From IMG/VR virus record IMGVR_UViG_3300022821_000011, positions 77,134-115,719 of that record: DNA of 38,586 bases; one strand, 5' to 3'. Within the stretch, counting starts at the first letter, position 1. Each line of letters opens with the position of its first letter. A program made the translations under genes and the position numbers. Below the pieces are notes generated by a model, which made no database searches, was not told where the DNA came from, and saw nothing but the letters and a program-made list of their open reading frames with translations. The stretch comes from a virus. Lineage: Duplodnaviria > Heunggongvirae > Uroviricota > Caudoviricetes. Below, one piece after another: positions 21,299 to 29,997 of the stretch.

Positions 21299-22354
21299 AT
21301 GATAAATACTTGGCTTGATGATAAATATATCAATCTTTTGTCTTTTAAACTAGATAGATTTAAAAGAATAGATTCACAAAAATATAATTTTAGATGTCCG
21401 TTTTGCGGTGATTCAAAAAAGAATCGTTTCAAGGCTAGAGGAAATGTGTTTCCATCAGATAGTGGTGGGTTGTTTTATAAATGTTTTAATTGCGGAATAC
21501 CGTTGTCATTTAGTGAATTTCTTAAAAGATTTGATGATGAGTTATATAAAGAATATAGACTAGAATCTATGAAAGATAGTAATAATCATTTTACTAAAAA
21601 TGATTTTAATAAAGTTCATAAAAATAGTATTGTTTTTCAGGAATTAAAAGATTTAAGAAGAATATCTCAACTTACATCAGACAATCCCGTTAAAAAATAT
21701 GTTACTGATAGAAAAATACCTTCTAAATATCATTACAAATTATATTATGCTAAAAGATTTATGGAGTGGATTAATACACTACTTCCAAATAAGTTTAATG
21801 AAAATCAATTAAGAAGAGATGAACCTAGATTAGTTATTCCATTTTTTGATTATGATGGTAATATATTTGCTGTTACTGGTAGATCTTTTAAAGAAAATTC
21901 TATCAAATATATGACTATTAAGTTCAATGATAAAGAATCTAAAATATTTGGCTTAGATGAATTAGATAGATCAAAAAAGGTTTATGTCGTAGAAGGTCCA
22001 ATTGATTCTTATTTTATAGATAATAGTTTAGCATTTGCCGGTATTGATGGAAATATTAAAAAAACATTAAAATCAATAGATTATGTTATAATATTAGATA
22101 ATCAGCCAAGAAATGATTCAGTTGTCAAGAAGTTAGAGAAACTTATTAATGATAAAGAAAAAGTTTTTATATGGCCAAAAGGATTAGAAGAATATAAAGA
22201 TATAAACGACTTAGTGATGGTCGGATATTCAAAAGAAGACATAAAAAAGTTAATAGATAAGAACACATATTATGATTTGGTTGCGAGATTGAAATTAAAC
22301 GAATGGAAGAAAATAGGAAGTATACATGAACAGCAGCAATATAATAGTAATTAA
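21299..22354 (+). CDS. gp61: DNA primase (T4 gp61-like)
   Basis: FRCPFCGDS...YKCFNC zinc finger; VVEGPIDS and DNQPRN TOPRIM; KDIND. Confidence 0.95.
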   Translation: MINTWLDDKYINLLSFKLDRFKRIDSQKYNFRCPFCGDSKKNRFKARGNVFPSDSGGLFYKCFNCGIPLSFSEFLKRFDDELYKEYRLESMKDSNNHFTKNDFNKVHKNSIVFQELKDLRRISQLTSDNPVKKYVTDRKIPSKYHYKLYYAKRFMEWINTLLPNKFNENQLRRDEPRLVIPFFDYDGNIFAVTGRSFKENSIKYMTIKFNDKESKIFGLDELDRSKKVYVVEGPIDSYFIDNSLAFAGIDGNIKKTLKSIDYVIILDNQPRNDSVVKKLEKLINDKEKVFIWPKGLEEYKDINDLVMVGYSKEDIKKLIDKNTYYDLVARLKLNEWKKIGSIHEQQQYNSN

Positions 22355-24638
22355 AAGAGACGGAAGAAAAGAACAATTAGATTTAAATAAATTTCATGCT
22401 GTTGTTGGATGGGCTTGTGAAGGGCTTACTGGGGTTTCCCCATCTTCGTTAGAAATAAAATCTCATATTCAATTTTATAATAATATAAAAACAAGTGAAA
22501 TACAAGAAACTCTTATTCATTCTGCATCAGAACTAATTTCTGAAGATCATCCAAATTATCAGTATGTAGCTGGCAGACTGATTAATTATGATATACGAAA
22601 ACAAGTGTTTGGCGGTCATGATCCGATTCCTTTAAAAGATCATGTAAATAGAATAATTGATCTTGGTTTTTATGACAAAGATCTTATTAATCTTTTTAAT
22701 AATGAAGAATGGAAGCATCTAGATCATATTGTTAAGCACGATAGAGATGATCAACTTACATATGCTGCAATGGAGCAATATAGAGGTAAATATCTTGTTA
22801 AAAATAGAAACACCGGGGAGATATATGAAACTCCTCAAATTGCTTGTATATTAATAGCTGCAGTTTTATTTTCATCATATCCAAAAGAAGAAAGAATGAA
22901 ATGGATTAAAGATTATTATGATGCTATTTCGCTTCATTATATTTCTTTACCTACACCAGTTATGGCTGGAATAAGAACTACTCAAAGACAATTTTCTTCA
23001 TGCGTTCTTATTGATTCTGCGGATTCATTAAATTCTATTAATGCAACATCATCATCAATTGTTAAATATGTTTCTCAAAGAGCTGGCATTGGTGTTAACA
23101 TTGGTAGAATTAGAGGAATTGGAGCTGAAGTTAGAGGTGGGCAGGTTACTCACACTGGATTAATACCATTCATTAAGTATTTTCAAGCTGCAGTGAAATC
23201 TTGTTCTCAGGGTGGGGTTCGAGGTGGCGCAGCTACTTTCTATTTTCCAATATGGCATTATGAAGCAGAAGAAATGCTTGTTCTAAAAAACAATCGAGGA
23301 ACTGAAGATAATCGTGCGCGACATGTTGATTATGGAGTTCAATTTAATAAGCTTATGTATGAAAGACTTATTTCAAATGAAGACATCACTTTGTTTTCTC
23401 CTGATGATGTTCCAGATTTATATGAAGCTTTTTTCACAAATCAAGATGAGTTTAAAAAATTATATGAAAAGTACGAAAGAGCATATTCAATTCGCAAAAA
23501 AACAGTCAGAGCAGCTGATTTATTTACATCCTTTATGCAGGAACGGAAAGACACAGGCAGGATATATCTCCAAAATGTGGATCATGCGAATGATCATGGA
23601 TCCTTTATTAGTGATATCGCACCAATTTACCAGTCAAATCTCTGTTCAGAAATAGACCTACCCACAAAGCCTCTTAATAATATATTTGATGAAGAAGGAG
23701 AAATAGCTTTATGCACTCTTTCTGCTATTAATTGGGGTCTTATTAAAGATCCTGCTGATTTTGAAAAATGGTGTACTTTATCAGTAAGAGCTCTCGATCA
23801 GCTTTTGACTTATCAGGATTATCCTGTTATTGCTGCTCAAAGAGCTACTGAAAATCGTAGACCTCTTGGTGTTGGAATTATCAATTTTGCATATTGGCTA
23901 GCAAAAAATGATTTAAACTATCAAGATATAGATACCAATGGTTTAAATCTTATTGATGAATATGCTGAAGCCTGGTCATATTATCTTATTAAAGCATCAG
24001 CAGATTTAGCAGAAGAAAAAGGTGAATGCCCATATAATTACCAGACAAAATATTCATTAGGAATAACACCAAATCAAACATATAAAAAGGATTTGGACGA
24101 GTTAGTAAAACATCAAGAAAGAATGCCATGGAAAGAACTTCGTGAGCAACTTAAGAAAACTGGGATACGTAACTCTACATTAATGGCTCTTATGCCATCA
24201 GAGACCTCGTCTCAGATATCGAATTCAACAAATGGTATTGAACCACCTCGTTCATTAGTTTCTGTCAAGCAGTCTAAAGATGGTGTGTTAAAACAAGTTG
24301 TACCAGAAATTAGAAGACTTAAAAACAAATATGATCTTCTATGGAATCAAAAAAGTCCTCTTGGTTATCTTAAAATTGTTTCTGTTTTACAAAAATATGT
24401 CGATCAAGGCATATCAGTCAATACATCTTATAACCCACTTCATTATGAGGGCGAAAAGATTTCTATGTCAGAAATGTTACAGCATTTGATATTATTCTAT
24501 AAGTGGGGTGGAAAACAGTTGTATTATTATAATACTTATGATGGAGCAGGCGAACTTGCTTTTGATGATAAACAAACAGAAATTATACAAGAACAAAACG
24601 AAATTATAGATGATTATTGTGACAGTTGTGTCATTTAA
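22326..24638 (+). CDS. nrdA: class Ia ribonucleotide reductase alpha subunit with ATP cone
   Basis: VIKRDG ATP cone, SSCVL, SNLCSE, LCTLSA, TSSQISN, KQLYYY and C-terminal CDSC. Confidence 0.97.
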   Translation: MNSSNIIVIKRDGRKEQLDLNKFHAVVGWACEGLTGVSPSSLEIKSHIQFYNNIKTSEIQETLIHSASELISEDHPNYQYVAGRLINYDIRKQVFGGHDPIPLKDHVNRIIDLGFYDKDLINLFNNEEWKHLDHIVKHDRDDQLTYAAMEQYRGKYLVKNRNTGEIYETPQIACILIAAVLFSSYPKEERMKWIKDYYDAISLHYISLPTPVMAGIRTTQRQFSSCVLIDSADSLNSINATSSSIVKYVSQRAGIGVNIGRIRGIGAEVRGGQVTHTGLIPFIKYFQAAVKSCSQGGVRGGAATFYFPIWHYEAEEMLVLKNNRGTEDNRARHVDYGVQFNKLMYERLISNEDITLFSPDDVPDLYEAFFTNQDEFKKLYEKYERAYSIRKKTVRAADLFTSFMQERKDTGRIYLQNVDHANDHGSFISDIAPIYQSNLCSEIDLPTKPLNNIFDEEGEIALCTLSAINWGLIKDPADFEKWCTLSVRALDQLLTYQDYPVIAAQRATENRRPLGVGIINFAYWLAKNDLNYQDIDTNGLNLIDEYAEAWSYYLIKASADLAEEKGECPYNYQTKYSLGITPNQTYKKDLDELVKHQERMPWKELREQLKKTGIRNSTLMALMPSETSSQISNSTNGIEPPRSLVSVKQSKDGVLKQVVPEIRRLKNKYDLLWNQKSPLGYLKIVSVLQKYVDQGISVNTSYNPLHYEGEKISMSEMLQHLILFYKWGGKQLYYYNTYDGAGELAFDDKQTEIIQEQNEIIDDYCDSCVI

Positions 24639-24740: not shown

Positions 24741-25202
24741 ATGAAAATATCAGCAAGTCGTAATGACACCGATGCAATACTAGGTTTTAGTGGTGATTAT
24801 CGTTGGTTATCAAATTTTTATCCGGTTGATATAGAATTTGAAAGCGAACATTATCCAAGCGTTGAACATGCATATCAGGCCGCAAAAACGCTTGATTTAA
24901 AGCAAAGAAAGCAATTTCAAGATCCTACAGTGCTTGCTGCAGAAGCAAAAAAAGCTGGATCAAAAGTTGAATTGCGTGTAGATTGGACTGAAGAAAATAG
25001 GCTTTCTGTTATGAAAGTTTGTTTAAAATCAAAATTTTCACATCCATCATTAGCAAAAAAACTATTAGATACTGGTGAAGCATATATAGAAGAAACCAAT
25101 TATTGGGGTGATAAATTCTGGGGAGTTGGTAATAGAGATGGGCAAGGATCAAATTGGCTTGGCCATTTAATTATGAATATTAGAGACGGATTGGACAAGT
25201 AG
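24741..25202 (+). CDS. NADAR family protein (YbiA/gp30.3-like)
   Basis: WLSNFY...YPSVEHAYQAAK...LLDTG...IEETNYWGDKFWG...NWLGHLIMNIR. Confidence 0.9.
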   Translation: MKISASRNDTDAILGFSGDYRWLSNFYPVDIEFESEHYPSVEHAYQAAKTLDLKQRKQFQDPTVLAAEAKKAGSKVELRVDWTEENRLSVMKVCLKSKFSHPSLAKKLLDTGEAYIEETNYWGDKFWGVGNRDGQGSNWLGHLIMNIRDGLDK

Positions 25203-26297
25203 TTGTCAGTATTTGAAGTTAATACACAGAACCATCTTGAAAAAAGAATGTTCTTTGATGAACCAGTTGATGTTGCAAGATACGATCAGCAAAAATATCC
25301 TTTCATAGAAAAATTAATCGATAAACAGCTTGGTTTCTTTTGGAGACCAGAAGAAGTTGATGTTTATCGTGATGCAAAAGATTTTAAAGATTTGACTGAT
25401 TGGGAACGTCATATTTTTACATCAAATCTAAAGAGACAAATTCTTCTTGATTCGGTTCAGGGAAGATCTCCTAATATTGCTTTTCTTCCAATTGTTTCTT
25501 TACCGGAACTTGAGACCTGGATTGAAACTTGGTCCTTTTCAGAAACAGTTCATTCAAGATCTTACACTCATATCATTAGAGCAGTATATTCAAATCCATC
25601 TAAAATTTTTGATGAGATGCTTGATATTCCTGAGATTATTGAATGCGCTACAGATATTTCTAAGCACTATGATGAATTAATTAATTTAAATACTCTTTTA
25701 TCATATGAGGGTTCTGATTTTGTAAATCAAATGGCTCATAAAAAAGCTGTATGGCGAGCTATGATGTCAGTTAATATTCTTGAAGGTGTTAGATTTTATG
25801 TTTCTTTCGCATGTTCGTGGGCTTTTGCTGAACAAAAGAAGAAAATGGAAGGAAATGCTAAGATTATTAAGTTGATTTGTAGAGATGAAAATCTCCACCT
25901 TGCTGGGACTCAGTTCATTCTTAAAAATCTACCAAAAGACGATAAAGATTTTGTTAAAATTCAAGAAGAAACTCGTGAAGAATGTATTACAATGTTTTTA
26001 GATGCATATCAGCAAGAAAAAGACTGGGCTACATTTCTATTTAAAGATGGATCTATGGTTGGCTTGAATGAGCAGATGCTTCATGACTATGTTGAATGGA
26101 TTACTCATAAAAGAATGTTGGCTGTTGGTTTACCATCTCCATTTAAAGGCGGATCAAATCCACTTCCATGGACTGAAAAATGGATTTCTGGAGCAGATGT
26201 GCAAGTTGCTCCACAACAAACGCAAATTAGTTCTTATGTAATTGGTGGCGTTAAAAACGATATAAGTGATGATACTTTCAAAGGATTTAATTTATAG
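25203..26297 (+). CDS. nrdB: class Ia ribonucleotide reductase beta subunit (TTG start; C-terminal tail APQQTQISSY)
   Basis: FFWRPEE, LLDSVQGR, ETVHSRSY, LEGVRFYVSFACSWAF, RDENLH diiron motifs. Confidence 0.95.
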   Translation: MSVFEVNTQNHLEKRMFFDEPVDVARYDQQKYPFIEKLIDKQLGFFWRPEEVDVYRDAKDFKDLTDWERHIFTSNLKRQILLDSVQGRSPNIAFLPIVSLPELETWIETWSFSETVHSRSYTHIIRAVYSNPSKIFDEMLDIPEIIECATDISKHYDELINLNTLLSYEGSDFVNQMAHKKAVWRAMMSVNILEGVRFYVSFACSWAFAEQKKKMEGNAKIIKLICRDENLHLAGTQFILKNLPKDDKDFVKIQEETREECITMFLDAYQQEKDWATFLFKDGSMVGLNEQMLHDYVEWITHKRMLAVGLPSPFKGGSNPLPWTEKWISGADVQVAPQQTQISSYVIGGVKNDISDDTFKGFNL

Positions 26298-27391
26298 TGC
26301 TTATAGTTCCAACTTTAGAAGAATGTAAAAAATTTGCATTAAAAATTGGAGCTATTAAAATATTTGAAATTAAAATATCTCCTACAGATTGGGCATTGCC
26401 ATTTGAATGTCATAATAATTGTGATTTAAATCCTGTTCTTGGATATTATTTTGTAAAAGATTCTCATGGAATACTTCACGCATATAAGCATTCTATTTTA
26501 AATGATGGTGAATATATTGATATTACACCAACGTTAGATAATAGAAAATATAATATATTTGCTTTTCCAAGTCATTATAATGCTGAAATTTTAACATATA
26601 TAGATGGTTCAGTTCTTATAAATACAAATAAAAAAGGAATTGAATTAATGTATTATATATATGCTTTAATAGATCCAAGGAATAATAAGCCTTTTTATAT
26701 AGGAAAAGGAAAAGATGATAGGTGTTTATCGCATTTTAAAGAAAATAATTTAAATAAAGAAAATAATTCTAAAAAAAGAGCAAAAATTAAAAAATTAAAA
26801 AAACTTGGTTTTGAACCAATGATAGAATTTTATGCTCAAAATATAAAAGATGAAGAATTAGCATATAATATTGAAACTTTTTTTATCAAAAAATATGGAA
26901 GAATTGGTTATGAAGAAGATGGAATATTAACAAACATTTGTATAAATAATAATCCACCAAATCATAATGGAAAAACATATAATGAAATATATGGAAAAAA
27001 ACAAGCACTATTAATTATAGAAAAAAAGAGAAATCTTCAATTAAAAGCAAGTGGTTATGGACCATTAAAACATACAGAAGAAACAAAAAGAAAAATAAGT
27101 GAAAAAACAAAAGGCGAAAAAAATCCAAGATATGGTATTAAAATAAAAGGCACTGAAATTGCTAATAAAATTAGTTTAGCAAACACTGGAAAAAAACATT
27201 ATTCTAGAGCTAAATTATTAGTAATAGAAAATATAAATAAAAAAATTAAAGATTTTGTTTTTTCAAATGATCTTAAAGAATATTGTATAAAAAATAATTT
27301 ATCAAAAGGTACTTTTAATTCTCAACTTGGATATAATTGGCCAATATCTAAAAAAGGAAAAAACAAAGGGTATAAAATAAGATTGGCAATA
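26217..27391 (+). mobile_element. 1175-bp endonuclease-carrying insertion in the nrdB 3' end, bringing a recoded nrdB tail
   Basis: 26217-26297 and 27392-27472 are near-identical copies of the last 26 nrdB codons plus stop; the sequence between them encodes a GIY-YIG-like/NUMOD3 protein. Confidence 0.8.
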
Positions 27392-27470
27392 GAAACAGAA
27401 ATTAGTTCTTATGTAATTGGTGGTGTTAAAAATGATATAAGTGATGATACATTTAAAGGATTTAATTTAT
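26224..27470 (+). repeat. 72-bp direct repeat (26224-26295 and 27399-27470) with 4 synonymous differences
   Basis: Aligned by eye: GGC/GGT, AAC/AAT, ACT/ACA, TTC/TTT; both encode ISSYVIGGVKNDISDDTFKGFNL. Confidence 0.95.
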
Positions 27471-27472
27471 GA
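26297..27472 (+). CDS. multidomain protein: Cys-His-Asp-like N-domain + GIY-YIG-like (LEM-3 type) endonuclease + NUMOD3 + NrdB C-terminal tail
   Basis: YYIYALIDPRNNKPFYIGKGKDDRCLSH; HTEETKRKISEKTKGEKNPRYG; ends ETEISSYVIGGVKNDISDDTFKGFNL. Confidence 0.8.
   Translation: MLIVPTLEECKKFALKIGAIKIFEIKISPTDWALPFECHNNCDLNPVLGYYFVKDSHGILHAYKHSILNDGEYIDITPTLDNRKYNIFAFPSHYNAEILTYIDGSVLINTNKKGIELMYYIYALIDPRNNKPFYIGKGKDDRCLSHFKENNLNKENNSKKRAKIKKLKKLGFEPMIEFYAQNIKDEELAYNIETFFIKKYGRIGYEEDGILTNICINNNPPNHNGKTYNEIYGKKQALLIIEKKRNLQLKASGYGPLKHTEETKRKISEKTKGEKNPRYGIKIKGTEIANKISLANTGKKHYSRAKLLVIENINKKIKDFVFSNDLKEYCIKNNLSKGTFNSQLGYNWPISKKGKNKGYKIRLAIETEISSYVIGGVKNDISDDTFKGFNL
26617..26650 (+). promoter_or_regulatory. 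internal late promoter TATAAATA + RBS + in-frame ATG for the endonuclease domain
   Basis: TATAAATA at 26617-26624, AAGGA, then ATG at 26648 in frame (Met118). Confidence 0.7.
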
Positions 27473-27651
27473 ATATAATTCAAGAGATTAATGATAAGAT
27501 TTCAGAACTTGAAAGACAGAAAGAAGAAATACAAGAATTGTGTTCTCATCCAGTTAATGATAGTACATGGAATAAATCAGAAGATGAATATGGTAGAGAA
27601 GATGGCCCTGGCTATTATTCTCATATTTGTAGATTGTGCACAGCCCGCTAG
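27469..27651 (+). CDS. hypothetical protein
   Basis: ATGA-coupled to the distal nrdB-tail copy. Confidence 0.55.
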   Translation: MNIIQEINDKISELERQKEEIQELCSHPVNDSTWNKSEDEYGREDGPGYYSHICRLCTAR

Positions 27652-27701
27652 ACATCGGAAAAGCCAGTCAGAACCTTAAAGAAATAATATGAGTAGAATT
27701 T

Positions 27702-27878
27702 ATGATTAAGAAAATATTTTCCAATAGAAAAAATGCAGTATTTGTATTATGTGCTATTTTATGCTTTATTTCGGCCCTACTTGCTTTTTTAGAATTTTTT
27801 GTAGCTGGAAGTATTATAATAGCTATAGCTGGTTTTGTTGGTATTATGAATGAATGTATAGATCAAAACAATGAGTAG
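27702..27878 (+). CDS. 58-aa two-TM membrane protein flanked by a 12-bp direct repeat
   Basis: Translated by hand (MIKKIFSNRKNAVFVLCAILCF...); ATGAGTAGAATT at 27689-27700 and 27871-27882. Confidence 0.55.
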   Translation: MIKKIFSNRKNAVFVLCAILCFISALLAFLEFFVAGSIIIAIAGFVGIMNECIDQNNE

Positions 27879-28134
27879 AATTAGTGCACAAATAACAAAT
27901 CCATTTATTGAAGAACATAATTGTAGCAATTCATATTCTATAGATAGAAAAATATCTAAAAATAAATCTATAATGGCTCAAATTATTTTGTTTGATTTTA
28001 AAACTTTATTTACATTTGAGATATGGCATAGAGATAGATTTATGGATCATAAGGGGTTGATGTTTGAAATAGGATTGGTTGGCTTTTCTATAATATTAGA
28101 ATTTTATGATGCCAGACACATAGATCATTATTAA
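27871..28134 (+). CDS. hypothetical protein
   Basis: 87-aa ORF; DHKGLMFEIGLVG...EFYDARH motif. Confidence 0.6.
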   Translation: MSRISAQITNPFIEEHNCSNSYSIDRKISKNKSIMAQIILFDFKTLFTFEIWHRDRFMDHKGLMFEIGLVGFSIILEFYDARHIDHY

Positions 28135-28139
28135 TGTTA

Positions 28140-28147
28140 TATAAATA
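28140..28147 (+). promoter_or_regulatory. T4-type late promoter (TATAAATA)
   Basis: Exact match upstream of the RBS (AAAGGAG) of 28169. Confidence 0.7.
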
Positions 28148-28168
28148 TTCCTAACAAAGGAGTATTTT

Positions 28169-28573
28169 ATGACAACAGTGCCGTGGATCTATAAGAAAAA
28201 AGTTTTATCAGAAATTCCAGAAGGATACTATGGTTTTGTATACATTATTACTAATAACACTAATAATCGTTTGTATATTGGGCGTAAGTTTTTTTATAGT
28301 TCTAAAACAAGGCAAATAAAAGGCAAGAAAAAAAGATATAAAGTAGAATCAGACTGGAAAGATTATTATGGATCAAATAAATCTTTACAAGAAGATGTTC
28401 AAAAATTAGGTTATGGAGCATTCCACAGAGAGATTTTACACTTATGTAAAACAAAAGGAACTTGCAATTATTATGAAGCCTATGAAATATTTAATCGCCA
28501 CGCTATAATAAAAGAAAATTTCTATAATGAATGGATACATGTTAAGGTGAGTAAGAATCATGTCAAAGAATGA
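28169..28573 (+). CDS. GIY-YIG-like nuclease, conserved T4-like type
   Basis: GFVYIITNNTNNRLYIGRK...ESDWKDYYGS...FHREIL. Confidence 0.75.
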   Translation: MTTVPWIYKKKVLSEIPEGYYGFVYIITNNTNNRLYIGRKFFYSSKTRQIKGKKKRYKVESDWKDYYGSNKSLQEDVQKLGYGAFHREILHLCKTKGTCNYYEAYEIFNRHAIIKENFYNEWIHVKVSKNHVKE

Positions 28574-29731: not shown

Positions 29732-29757
29732 AGAAAATAATAATGGCGTTTGGACTG

Positions 29758-29997
29758 ATGAAAATTGTAGTTTTTACTAAACCTGGTTGTTCATTTTGTG
29801 TAAAAGCAAAAGATCTTCTTGATAGTGAGGGACTTATATACTCTGAGATTGTGGTAGGAGAAGATGGAAATATAAGTAAAGATAGTTTTCTTTCTTTGTT
29901 TCCAGAAACAAAAACTCTTCCACTTATTAAAATTAATGATGATGTAGTTGGCGGATATAAAAATTTAGTCGATTGGATTAATAAATTTACTAAATGA
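29758..29997 (+). CDS. nrdC: glutaredoxin (NrdC-like RNR reductant)
   Basis: VFTKPGCSFCVKAK, TLPLI, VGGY; start probably the ATG at 29758. Confidence 0.85.
   Translation: MKIVVFTKPGCSFCVKAKDLLDSEGLIYSEIVVGEDGNISKDSFLSLFPETKTLPLIKINDDVVGGYKNLVDWINKFTK

Follow-up and report, generated by a model that had tools for sequence, protein, structure and literature searches.

Evidence for a mobile tail-replacement cassette in a phage ribonucleotide reductase gene, with a candidate enzyme domain accompanying its glutamine-bearing tail

The end of nrdB is duplicated and replaced

In the class Ia ribonucleotide reductase (RNR) of E. coli, residue E350 of the β subunit is reported to be conserved and essential (PMC8463856; PMC9248007) and to form hydrogen bonds with K154 and S647 of the α subunit (PMC11482829). 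The locus described here raises the question of how a phage nrdB gene can encode Gln at this position, and why the canonical end of the gene is found fused to the end of the following ORF. The window, meaning the whole stretch of 38,586 nucleotides analysed (positions 77,134 to 115,719 of the IMG/VR record IMGVR_UViG_3300022821_000011), carries an nrdB whose product aligns with E. coli β at 434 bits (HMMER alignment). In this alignment, the two Gln residues of the phage protein fall on E350 and E352 and a Tyr falls on Y356, so that of the class Ia tail residues Y356 is present while the encoded residues at E350 and E352 are both Gln. Elsewhere in the alignment, Y122, W48 and E52 are kept, as are the equivalents of the diiron ligands D84, E115, H118, E204, E238 and H241. 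No second nrdB was found in the 115.7-kb contig, which is about 61% complete. A megablast search of cultured phages returned no close DNA relatives of the window, and the nearest NrdB proteins in cultured phages, about 63% identical, belong to jumbo enterobacterial phages. The features of the locus are the following.

25203..26297, + strand: nrdB, class Ia ribonucleotide reductase β, tail replaced (PF00268, E 6.8e-45)
26217..26225, + strand: CAA-ACG-CAA, encoding Gln-Thr-Gln, first codons of the cassette, equivalent to E. coli E350-V351-E352
26217..26297, + strand: proximal, cassette-borne tail copy including the TAG stop, 72 of 81 nt identical to 27392-27472
26297..26647, + strand: X domain, ORF residues 1-117, with invariant Cys38, His65 and Asp75 (alignments; AF2 model)
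26648..26902, + strand: GIY-YIG nuclease domain, ORF residues 118-202 (PF22945, E 7.7e-7; PF01541, E 0.0014)
27068..27136, + strand: NUMOD3 DNA-binding motif, ORF residues 258-280 (PF07460, E 8.3e-8)
27392..27472, + strand: distal, ancestral nrdB tail remnant with ETE, in-frame end of the endonuclease ORF (tail repeat)
27469..27651, + strand: ORF of 60 residues coupled by ATGA to the ancestral nrdB stop (weak PHROG matches only)

The nrdB product terminates in VQVAPQ-QTQ-ISSYVIGGVKNDISDDTFKGFNL-stop, the part after QTQ being spelled ISSY...NL. The next ORF (26297-27472, 391 residues) begins with a GTG that overlaps the nrdB TAG stop and ends in RLAI-ETE-ISSYVIGGVKNDISDDTFKGFNL-stop, its TGA overlapping the ATG of the ORF at 27469. 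The tail swap noticed in the first-pass annotation is therefore real. Of the nine differences between the two copies, two are G>C changes that each alter the first position of a Glu codon, one is ACA>ACG, four others are silent and two fall in the stop codon; the element supplies a recoded tail, as had been supposed. In the window, the distal copy is complete and in frame, and apart from ETE it encodes the same residues as the working tail. Upstream of the two copies, only 8 of 30 nt are shared, which is the chance level, indicating that the homology begins exactly at codon 350. Moreover, the distal copy starts at this same codon in every related contig that retains one, in agreement with the earlier proposal that it is the ancestral end and that the junction lies at APQ^ETE. 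Since at least nine other distinct contig groups retain a recognisable distal tail behind a homologous ORF, an assembly artefact is unlikely. The GC content of the cassette is 22%, against 33% for nrdB, and a promoter and terminator scan of the cassette gave nothing above shuffled expectation. A group I intron harbouring an endonuclease ORF, of the kind known from T4 nrdB, was rejected, because no Rfam match at E<=1 was obtained in 25000-28200 and because the ORF takes up the whole insert between the nrdB stop and the distal tail, leaving no non-coding space.

The central part of the ORF resembles the free-standing Seg/I-TevI-like GIY-YIG endonucleases, with the catalytic residues present and a NUMOD region C-terminal to the nuclease. 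Residues Tyr120, Tyr122, Tyr134, Gly136, Arg142, Glu193 and Asn213 are invariant in 19 homologues of the ORF, whose alignment also reveals a conserved C-terminal GKxxG[WYL]K[IL] region after NUMOD3. No relatives of the endonuclease above 29% identity were found among 50,697 phage records. The endonuclease is absent from 79 of 80 clade A relatives, which amounts to a presence/absence polymorphism at one site, and clade B shows 52 empty and 10 occupied sites at the same position. The locus thus combines the traits of a replacement-end cassette, namely a substitute end, an endonuclease gene, a displaced original end and one fixed junction codon. We conclude that an uncultured T4-like phage almost certainly carries a mobile tail-replacement cassette in its gene for the RNR small subunit.

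The displaced tail is probably a decaying remnant

The presence of a complete ETE tail at the end of the endonuclease ORF had led to the suggestion that a crippled β is complemented in trans by the fused tail with its Y356, or that this tail tethers the nuclease to NrdA or inhibits RNR. In support of such roles, the fused tail is intact and in frame in the window, and a recognisable in-frame tail is also retained in the divergent loci L084, the L088 group and L117. In most relatives, however, only its last 5-13 residues are left, or it is frameshifted away from the nuclease, or it is absent altogether, the ORFs ending in KGFSL, IFKGFSL or QDIDEDSFRGFSL before the stop. This also applies to L045/L123, which carry the same QTQ allele and where the fused tail is likewise truncated, frameshifted or missing. 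In clade B, the cassette terminates where about 35 nt of the nrdB end are left as a remnant, and neither the clade B and C cassettes nor the stand-alone X loci carry a fused tail. Being cut down or lost in most members of the family, the fused tail is not a conserved part of it. As the remnant is progressively deleted in relatives, its last codons and the stop/start overlap are retained; the survival of this overlap for the next gene accounts for a remnant that stays in frame.

A crippled β is also difficult to reconcile with the selection acting on the gene. The dN/dS of Gln-bearing nrdB is 0.04-0.08, with dS up to 0.9, and by this measure the gene clearly appears to be a constrained, working one under strong purifying selection. 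The NrdA residues that contact E350 (K154 and S647-K648) are unchanged in Gln and Glu phages alike, and no compensatory NrdA change was found at these positions; the literature searched contained no mention of E350Q. Comparative data thus largely refute the action of the fused tail in trans, to which we now assign a very small probability, and the old tail is in all likelihood a functionless, decaying remnant.

Glutamine in the tail co-occurs with the X domain

To the N-terminal side of the nuclease, the ORF carries the domain designated X. Its distribution was compared with that of the tail Gln residues on metagenomic contigs, from which all comparative data derive. A DNA search detected 74 further IMG/VR contigs with QVAPQQTQ and a homologous ORF starting at the nrdB stop. 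In a census of 190 de-duplicated nrdB ends, Gln occurred together with X in 87 cases (13 of them without GIY-YIG), and neither was present in 99 (7 of them with GIY-YIG). X without Gln was not encountered, and the sole Gln end without X carried Q354 only, with E350 and E352 intact. A second census, based on an X DNA motif, yielded 78 loci; in all 71 for which upstream sequence is available, an nrdB with one or more Gln in the segment lies no more than 1.5 kb upstream, and ETE was seen in none of them. Gln at 350, 352 or 354 therefore occurs essentially only, and always, with an X gene. The first-pass annotation had asked whether Q350 is confined to genes with the element, and this expectation was borne out: Gln was seen in none of 79 relatives without the element, nor in any of 99 in the census.

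Several natural comparisons separate X from the nuclease. In clade B minimal pairs, the tails are identical apart from three E-to-Q changes. Locus L176 (ETE, nuclease, no X) and locus L238 (QTQ, nuclease and X) are 82% identical across nrdA-nrdB-nuclease, and their homology stops where X starts. X is also fused to an unrelated DUF723-type nuclease, again directly after nrdB and with the tail QTEVQ; in some phages it stands alone directly after nrdB, without a nuclease, and in others it is encoded after the nuclease, still with Gln at 350, 352 or 354. Nearly all fused X genes, and the stand-alone ones as well, have a start codon that overlaps the nrdB stop. At least six lineages have an intact X but a truncated nuclease or none, and no Gln allele was found beside a damaged X. 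On the other hand, related GIY-YIG endonucleases without X adjoin unrecoded ETE genes. Since GIY-YIG without X lies beside ETE and X follows nrdB without a nuclease, the presence of Gln goes with X and not with the nuclease. The earlier reading that a Gln-tailed β works and that recoding simply confers immunity to cleavage is thus sustained only in part: the gene appears to be functional, but Gln may not be needed for immunity to the GIY-YIG enzyme, as related nucleases coexist with ETE.

The alleles themselves are variable. Compared with naive sites, the DNA differs consistently only by G>C at the first codon position, the wobble bases being variable in either class of allele. E350 is retained in some X-bearing phages, whose Gln residues are confined to 352 and 354 (ETQVQ); E350Q is thus not obligatory, and Q350 is perhaps not entirely neutral. 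In a single allele, QTA, residue 352 is Ala.

X has the appearance of an enzyme

The X domain is about 115-145 residues long and evolves with a dN/dS of 0.09-0.26. Among 150 representatives of the family (n=1461), a Cys is present in 147 of 148, an Asn in 143, and a His and an Asp in 148 of 148 each; these positions correspond to C38, N41, H65 and D75 of the window ORF. In the AF2 model (pLDDT 92), a helix starts at the Cys, and adjacent strands carry the His and the Asp. Invariant Cys, His and Asp together with a polar residue are what would be looked for in a thiol amidohydrolase or deamidase, and X, with these near-invariant residues and its confident model, looks like an enzyme.

Searches of Pfam, NCBIfam and PHROGs returned nothing significant for X. 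Among solved structures, no matching fold and no thiol hydrolase or deamidase was found: the best Foldseek hit against the PDB had E 0.5, the best wide VIA-align score was Z 3.0 and a second look reached Z 2.7, the best hits being at this level or weak β-barrel likenesses. The catalytic-triad reading is accordingly a tentative one, drawn from the invariant residues and the predicted secondary structure. Matches in AFDB and the ESM Atlas were confined to uncharacterised proteins and SEC-C fusions, and bacterial members of the family bear SEC-C motifs and not nuclease domains. Two bacterial-type relatives sit on short prophage-like contigs that gave no informative context. The X protein P0197 used as a query found nothing in IMG/VR. 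Complex prediction of X with the 50-residue NrdB tail gave a score of 0.00, which is no verdict and evidence neither way.

Possible roles of X

A model that could account for these observations is as follows. The cassette begins at nrdB codon 350 with the substitute tail QTQISSY...stop, followed by the coupled ORF with the X domain, the GIY-YIG nuclease and the DNA-binding motifs; its right end abuts the former phage tail ETEISSY..., which has become the end of the nuclease ORF. By changing E to Q at its left edge, the cassette may prevent the rebuilt target from being recognised or recut, and X may render the Gln tail viable. As a thiol (Cys-His-Asp) or metal-dependent amidohydrolase, X could convert the tail Gln to Glu post-translationally, so that the DNA would remain immune while the protein regains E350. 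The parts of this model deserve different degrees of confidence. Judging from the distribution of the sequences, X and the Gln tail are probably functionally linked. That the link acts at the protein level has about even chances. Its narrower form, a Gln-to-Glu conversion at 350 and 352 (and perhaps 354) by a new family of small protein-glutamine amidohydrolases, is the mechanism we favour, but only tentatively and at less than even odds. Overall, a tail-replacement cassette with X functionally tied to the Gln tail, perhaps through Gln-to-Glu conversion, is the best explanation we can offer, with an even balance of belief for and against it.

X could instead act purely on DNA, as a small site-specific nuclease, nickase or targeting module for GAA-ACN-GAA(-NNN-GAA) of nrdB, in which case Gln would be a mark of self-immunity and Gln-bearing β would work unaided, with no repair needed. 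A DNA role would explain the association equally well, with related nucleases coexisting with ETE, and Gln is dispensable for GIY-YIG relatives that lack X. The fusion partners of X comprise two unrelated nuclease families as well as DNA-binding modules (GIY-YIG, in 30 of 88, NUMOD3, DUF723 and DUF4379), the Gln codons lie exactly at the cassette junction, and G>C at codon position 1 is the most conservative change of a Glu codon outside the wobble base. Gln could, moreover, still form hydrogen bonds like those reported for E350 (PMC11482829). Against this stand the small size of X, the complete DNA-binding regions that GIY-YIG proteins already have, and the bacterial members with SEC-C in place of nuclease domains. 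In lineages where no nuclease can be recognised, X still remains intact and coupled to nrdB; homing nucleases usually decay. We know of no nuclease family that matches its invariant Cys/His/Asp/Asn set. Finally, Gln never replaces Glu in about 100 X-free relatives, which argues that it is not freely tolerated. A purely DNA-level role is thus rather unlikely, without being negligible.

A protein-level link without deamidation would make X a regulator, a transglutaminase-like cross-linker, a tail protease, a helper of cofactor assembly or one half of an addiction pair that prevents deletion of the cassette. The X–Gln association, the translational coupling of X to nrdB and the retention of X after loss of the nuclease are all compatible with such roles. 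However, cleavage by a tail protease would cost the enzyme Y356 and hence its activity, whereas nrdB is strongly constrained, and the unchanged α contacts fit a tail that ends up looking normal; we consider this group of roles unlikely. It could also be that X and the Gln codons have no functional link and are neighbours in one ancestral cassette, carried together by co-conversion during homing. They are tightly linked, at 0.1-0.9 kb, and co-inherited, so that part of the association reflects shared descent, and the cassette genes show a lower dS than nrdB, suggesting horizontal spread. Yet the association spans at least four NrdB clades less than 50% identical, with X proteins 25-35% identical, and holds across differing gene orders and nucleases. 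Although the alleles have diverged (QTQ, ETQ.Q, QTE, QSQ, EEQ), no lineage has X and lacks all Gln, and none without X keeps Q350 or Q352. Mere neighbourhood is accordingly a quite improbable explanation.

Significance and comparison with known systems

About 90 distinct phage nrdB genes that bear Gln, are constrained and are partnered by X provide the RNR field with a natural test of the role of E350. For the homing-endonuclease field, they offer a candidate immune allele that alters a catalytic residue, and the X family (1461 members, no known function) gains a concrete candidate partner in the NrdB tail. If X restores Glu, it would represent a new way for mobile elements to neutralise their own damage and a new post-translational step in RNR maturation. 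It would then be a protein-level repair device alongside introns at the RNA level, inteins with their protein splicing, and translational bypass. Such a device would allow the DNA of an essential residue to be recoded with the enzyme still working, whether by a selfish element or by a phage that protects itself from such elements, and the host gene would be made dependent on the element.

The closest conceptual precedent for encoding Gln where the mature functional protein carries Glu is found in chemoreceptors, whose Gln residues are deamidated to Glu by CheB and CheD; no relation of X to these enzymes was detectable in sequence or fold, and the parallel is one of idea only. The order of the parts (gene body, foreign replacement C-terminal piece, endonuclease ORF, displaced end) is the same as in the GIY-YIG element of the Allomyces macrogynus mitochondrial atp6 gene. 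For mitochondrial replacement-end elements, we know of neither a recoded catalytic residue nor an accessory enzyme-like domain.

Endonuclease genes inserted at critical phage loci include mobA in T4 gene 60 and mobE, which splits nrdA of Aeromonas phage Aeh1 (PMC2988022), and the bypass element of T4 gene 60 is part of a mobile element (bioRxiv 10.1101/2022.08.31.505936). As with mobA and gene 60, a free-standing endonuclease travels here with an altered host-gene sequence at a critical site, and a working protein would still be made through an unusual downstream fix. In gene 60, however, ribosomes hop over a 50-nt insert, whereas here nrdB is uninterrupted but recoded at an essential residue, for which a separate protein domain is the candidate fix. 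To our knowledge, nothing like X accompanies mobA. The T-even Seg and Mob enzymes share the GIY-YIG and NUMOD combination beside the target gene, the presence/absence polymorphism and the co-conversion of flanking markers (PMC2988022), but their self-immunity is not reported to alter an essential catalytic residue and they have no X-like domain. Like mobE in Aeh1, the present element places a homing endonuclease in a critical region of an RNR gene of a T4-like phage with function kept (PMC2988022). In Aeh1, NrdA consists of two polypeptides that reassemble, whereas here NrdB is unsplit; a duplicate has taken the place of its tail, and the copy left over is in all likelihood dispensable.

The nrdB tail and its displaced copy

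The RNR genes of the window stand in a row beginning with nrdA, and nrdB runs directly into an ORF of 391 codons:

22326-24638, nrdA, the first in the row of RNR genes
24741-25202, NADAR gene between nrdA and nrdB (PF08719, E 2.9e-21)
25203-26297, nrdB, with a TTG start directly after the NADAR gene stop
26297-27472, 391-codon ORF, its GTG start overlapping the nrdB TAG

The first-pass annotation had described a swapped nrdB tail, and this observation is right in all its details. The end of nrdB reads APQ-QTQ-ISSYVIGGVKNDISDDTFKGFNL, and that of the 391-codon ORF reads RLAI-ETE-ISSYVIGGVKNDISDDTFKGFNL, where the TGA overlaps the start ATG of a small ORF that comes next. Of 81 nt, 72 are identical between the two tails (26217-26297 and 27392-27472); they differ in the first position of both Glu/Gln codons, at ACA/ACG, at four silent positions and in the stop codon, and just upstream, identity is at chance level (8/30). 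The G+C content is 22% in the insert versus 33% in nrdB. In a HMMER alignment to E. coli beta, the two Gln of the tail correspond to E350 and E352 and the Tyr to Y356, and Y122, the iron ligands, W48 and E52 are all kept. NrdA is closely related to E. coli alpha and retains K154 and S647-K648-D649. The contig, an IMG/VR record of 115.7 kb from an uncultured T4-like phage, contains only one nrdB.

The cassette consists of a replacement nrdB tail and the following ORF, and ends against the displaced original tail. The first 117 residues of this ORF form an uncharacterised domain, hereafter X, followed by a GIY-YIG nuclease domain (residues 118-202) and a NUMOD3 motif (residues 258-280; both Pfam). 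No close relative of the ORF was found in cultured phages, and no signal of a group I intron was found at the insert.

About 700 bp downstream of the cassette lies a 134-aa ORF (28169-28573) with a GIY-YIG-like start (YGFVYIITNNTNNRLYIGRK), and small SegE-type ORFs also occur near the cassette in the related contig loci L045 (6625-7095) and L236/L238 (PF19835); several endonuclease-like genes are thus present in this region. An 84-aa glutaredoxin/NrdC-like ORF with a CSFC motif is also present downstream (29743-29997), and glutaredoxin-like genes likewise follow the cassette in L045, L165, L166 and L170.

The fused ETE tail is a remnant

It had been proposed that the ETE tail fused to the endonuclease acts in trans, either complementing NrdB, or tethering the nuclease to NrdA or inhibiting RNR. 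Both options are strongly disfavoured, since this tail is deleted, frameshifted or lost in relatives. It is whole and in frame in the window, L084, the L088 group and L117, internally deleted in some relatives, where the nuclease ends with ...KGFSL, ...IFKGFSL or ...QDIDEDSFRGFSL, frameshifted off the nuclease in L091, L104 and L129, and gone in L045/L123 and others. Every surviving distal copy starts at a single fixed codon (ETE, in some cases decayed), and the cassettes of a second NrdB clade finish at some 35 nt left over from the nrdB end. What persists is the final few codons and, with them, the overlap between the stop codon and the start of the gene downstream, which explains why the frame of the remnant is kept. 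The fused ETE tail is thus a remnant.

Gln follows X and not the nuclease

The expectation that Gln occurs solely alongside the element holds in the 80 closest IMG/VR nrdB loci (63-68% identical): 79 read APQETEI[ST]SY and have no insert, and the sole exception, L045, reads APQQTQISSY and carries a homologous 384-codon ORF that starts from the same TAGTG overlap and lacks the fused ETE tail. The DNA pattern QVAPQQTQI..Y matched 74 contigs, nearly all with a homologous ORF (34-63% identical) starting at or across the nrdB stop. Wobble bases vary freely both in naive, all-Glu sites without insert (GAA/GAG, ACN) and in Gln alleles (CAA/CAG), the sole constant difference between them being G>C in the first position of the Glu codons.

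When the ORF itself served as query in a reverse search, GIY-YIG homologues without X came up just downstream of nrdB genes with a normal ETE tail (L165, L172-L176, L181, L208), as did nuclease genes with X as an ORF of its own behind them, beside QTQ, QSQ or ETQ tails. Clade B (NrdB 84-100% identical to that of L173) comprises 52 unoccupied ETE-type sites, four sites with a nuclease and no X, all with Glu, and six with nuclease and X, all reading QTQVQSY where close relatives have ETEVESY; these three E-to-Q changes are the only difference from the naive tail. Over nrdA, nrdB and the nuclease gene, L176, which has ETE and no X, shares 82% identity with L238, which has QTQ and X; their homology ends at the start of X. 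X is also found directly after nrdB fused to a quite different nuclease, with DUF723 zinc-ribbon repeats and a Vsr-like domain (tail QTEVQSY). Stand-alone X genes that overlap the stop of nrdB and have no nuclease in the vicinity occur in L330 (tail ETQKQSY), in an nrdB-X-dCMP deaminase arrangement and in L334, L358, L362 and L371.

A census that began from the X DNA motif, and hence took no account of the nrdB allele, retrieved 78 loci. Upstream sequence is available for 71 of these, and every one of the 71 carries an nrdB no more than 1.5 kb away, with at least one Gln at 350, 352 or 354.

Combined census of all fetched loci, de-duplicated
Gln at 350/352/354, X present: 87 (13 without GIY-YIG)
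Gln, X absent: 1 (Q354 only, divergent clade)
No Gln, X present: 0
No Gln, X absent: 99 (7 with GIY-YIG)

Gln follows X, not the nuclease, and this two-way association holds in no fewer than four NrdB clades, under several gene orders and with two families of nuclease.

Two side observations concern clade B. L243/L173 (IMGVR_UViG_3300046000_004671) carries a nuclease without X and has an NrdB that shares 96% identity with the one in L244. Its tail (ETEITSYLIGGIKQDMKKDEF...) is nevertheless similar to the tail of another lineage, which looks like an import with the cassette, both Glu being kept. The cassettes of L244, L255, L266, L270 and L274 start immediately behind the nrdB stop, and their first ~60 nt contain sigma-70-like (TTGACT...TATTAT) and T4-late-like (TATAAATA) promoter sequences, replacing the terminator hairpin found after nrdB in naive relatives.

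Domain X has enzyme-like features

X has no match in Pfam, PHROGs or NCBIfam. Its AF2 model is confident (pLDDT 92), with Cys38 opening a short helix and His65 and Asp75 on successive strands. No solved structure resembling it was found (best Foldseek E 0.5; VIA-align Z 3.0 and 2.7), and its relatives in AlphaFold DB and ESM Atlas are all unnamed. HMMER, run in full over 1.84 billion representatives, yielded 1461 relatives, and in the best 150 of them the Cys, Asn41, Gly49, His and Asp are nearly invariant, a residue pattern that suggests an enzyme, for which a thiol hydrolase would be one candidate, or a metal site. Among 88 longer relatives, 30 carry GIY-YIG, 11 a SEC-C motif and a few other zinc-ribbon modules. 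The family is also present away from phage nrdB; one member, P0201 (403 aa, metagenomic, high GC), seemingly has two tandem X-like domains (CF.N...H.VW...D.TPH twice) and no nuclease.

Possible role of X at the Gln-bearing tail

In E. coli class Ia RNR, E350 is reported to be conserved and essential (PMC8463856; PMC9248007) and to position the tail via K154-alpha, S647-alpha and bound water (PMC11482829). The alpha residues reported to contact E350 are the same in Gln and Glu phages. The nrdB of element-bearing phages is still constrained: in the element-bearing group of clade B, its dN/dS is 0.04-0.08 (dS up to 0.9), compared with 0.06-0.20 for the nuclease and 0.09-0.26 for X. At least six lineages have an intact X while their nuclease is truncated or absent, and no damaged X was found alongside a Gln allele.

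From this association we infer that X could act at the protein level, rendering the Gln tail workable. Such a role would readily account for the invariant Cys/His/Asp/Asn set of X, for X being translationally coupled to nrdB and persisting where no nuclease is present, for alpha contacts that have not changed, and for X-free genes lacking Gln. It would also explain why Gln alone is used, as no other residue can be converted back to Glu. In the simplest form, X would convert the tail Gln to Glu, a specific mechanism that we propose only tentatively and that is more probably wrong than right. Action at the DNA level, X cutting or directing cutting at the Glu codons and Gln conferring self-immunity, readily accounts for nucleases without X having no need of Gln; we nevertheless favour the protein-level role over it. 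Shared descent accounts for some of the pattern, though not for the association holding over so deep a divergence.

Relation to other insertions in RNR genes

Other interruptions of RNR genes were also observed. In the cultured jumbo Yersinia phage fHe-Yen9-04 (LT960551.1, 223358-225522), the nrdB match is divided in two and annotated as a pair of beta-subunit genes with a hypothetical protein between them (g298-g300), and the sibling fHe-Yen9-03 has nrdB in one piece; this is an insertion different from the cassette. In L175 (1495-2581), nrdB appears as two ORFs of 185 and 195 aa, which may reflect a frameshift, a sequencing error or another insertion. Around the X-family protein P0197 (ENA ERZ24794639), the order is an nrdA split by a GIY-YIG gene with weak intein-splicing matches, nrdB, a lone X and dCMP deaminase; several types of mobile element seem to be stacked in this operon.

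The nrdB cassette groups with the free-standing GIY-YIG endonucleases of T4-like phages, and also with elements that bring a substitute piece of a host gene, examples being mobA with gene 60 and the Aeh1 nrdA that is split by mobE (PMC2988022). What is new here is that the substitute piece alters a catalytic residue, and always does so together with a dedicated enzyme-like domain.
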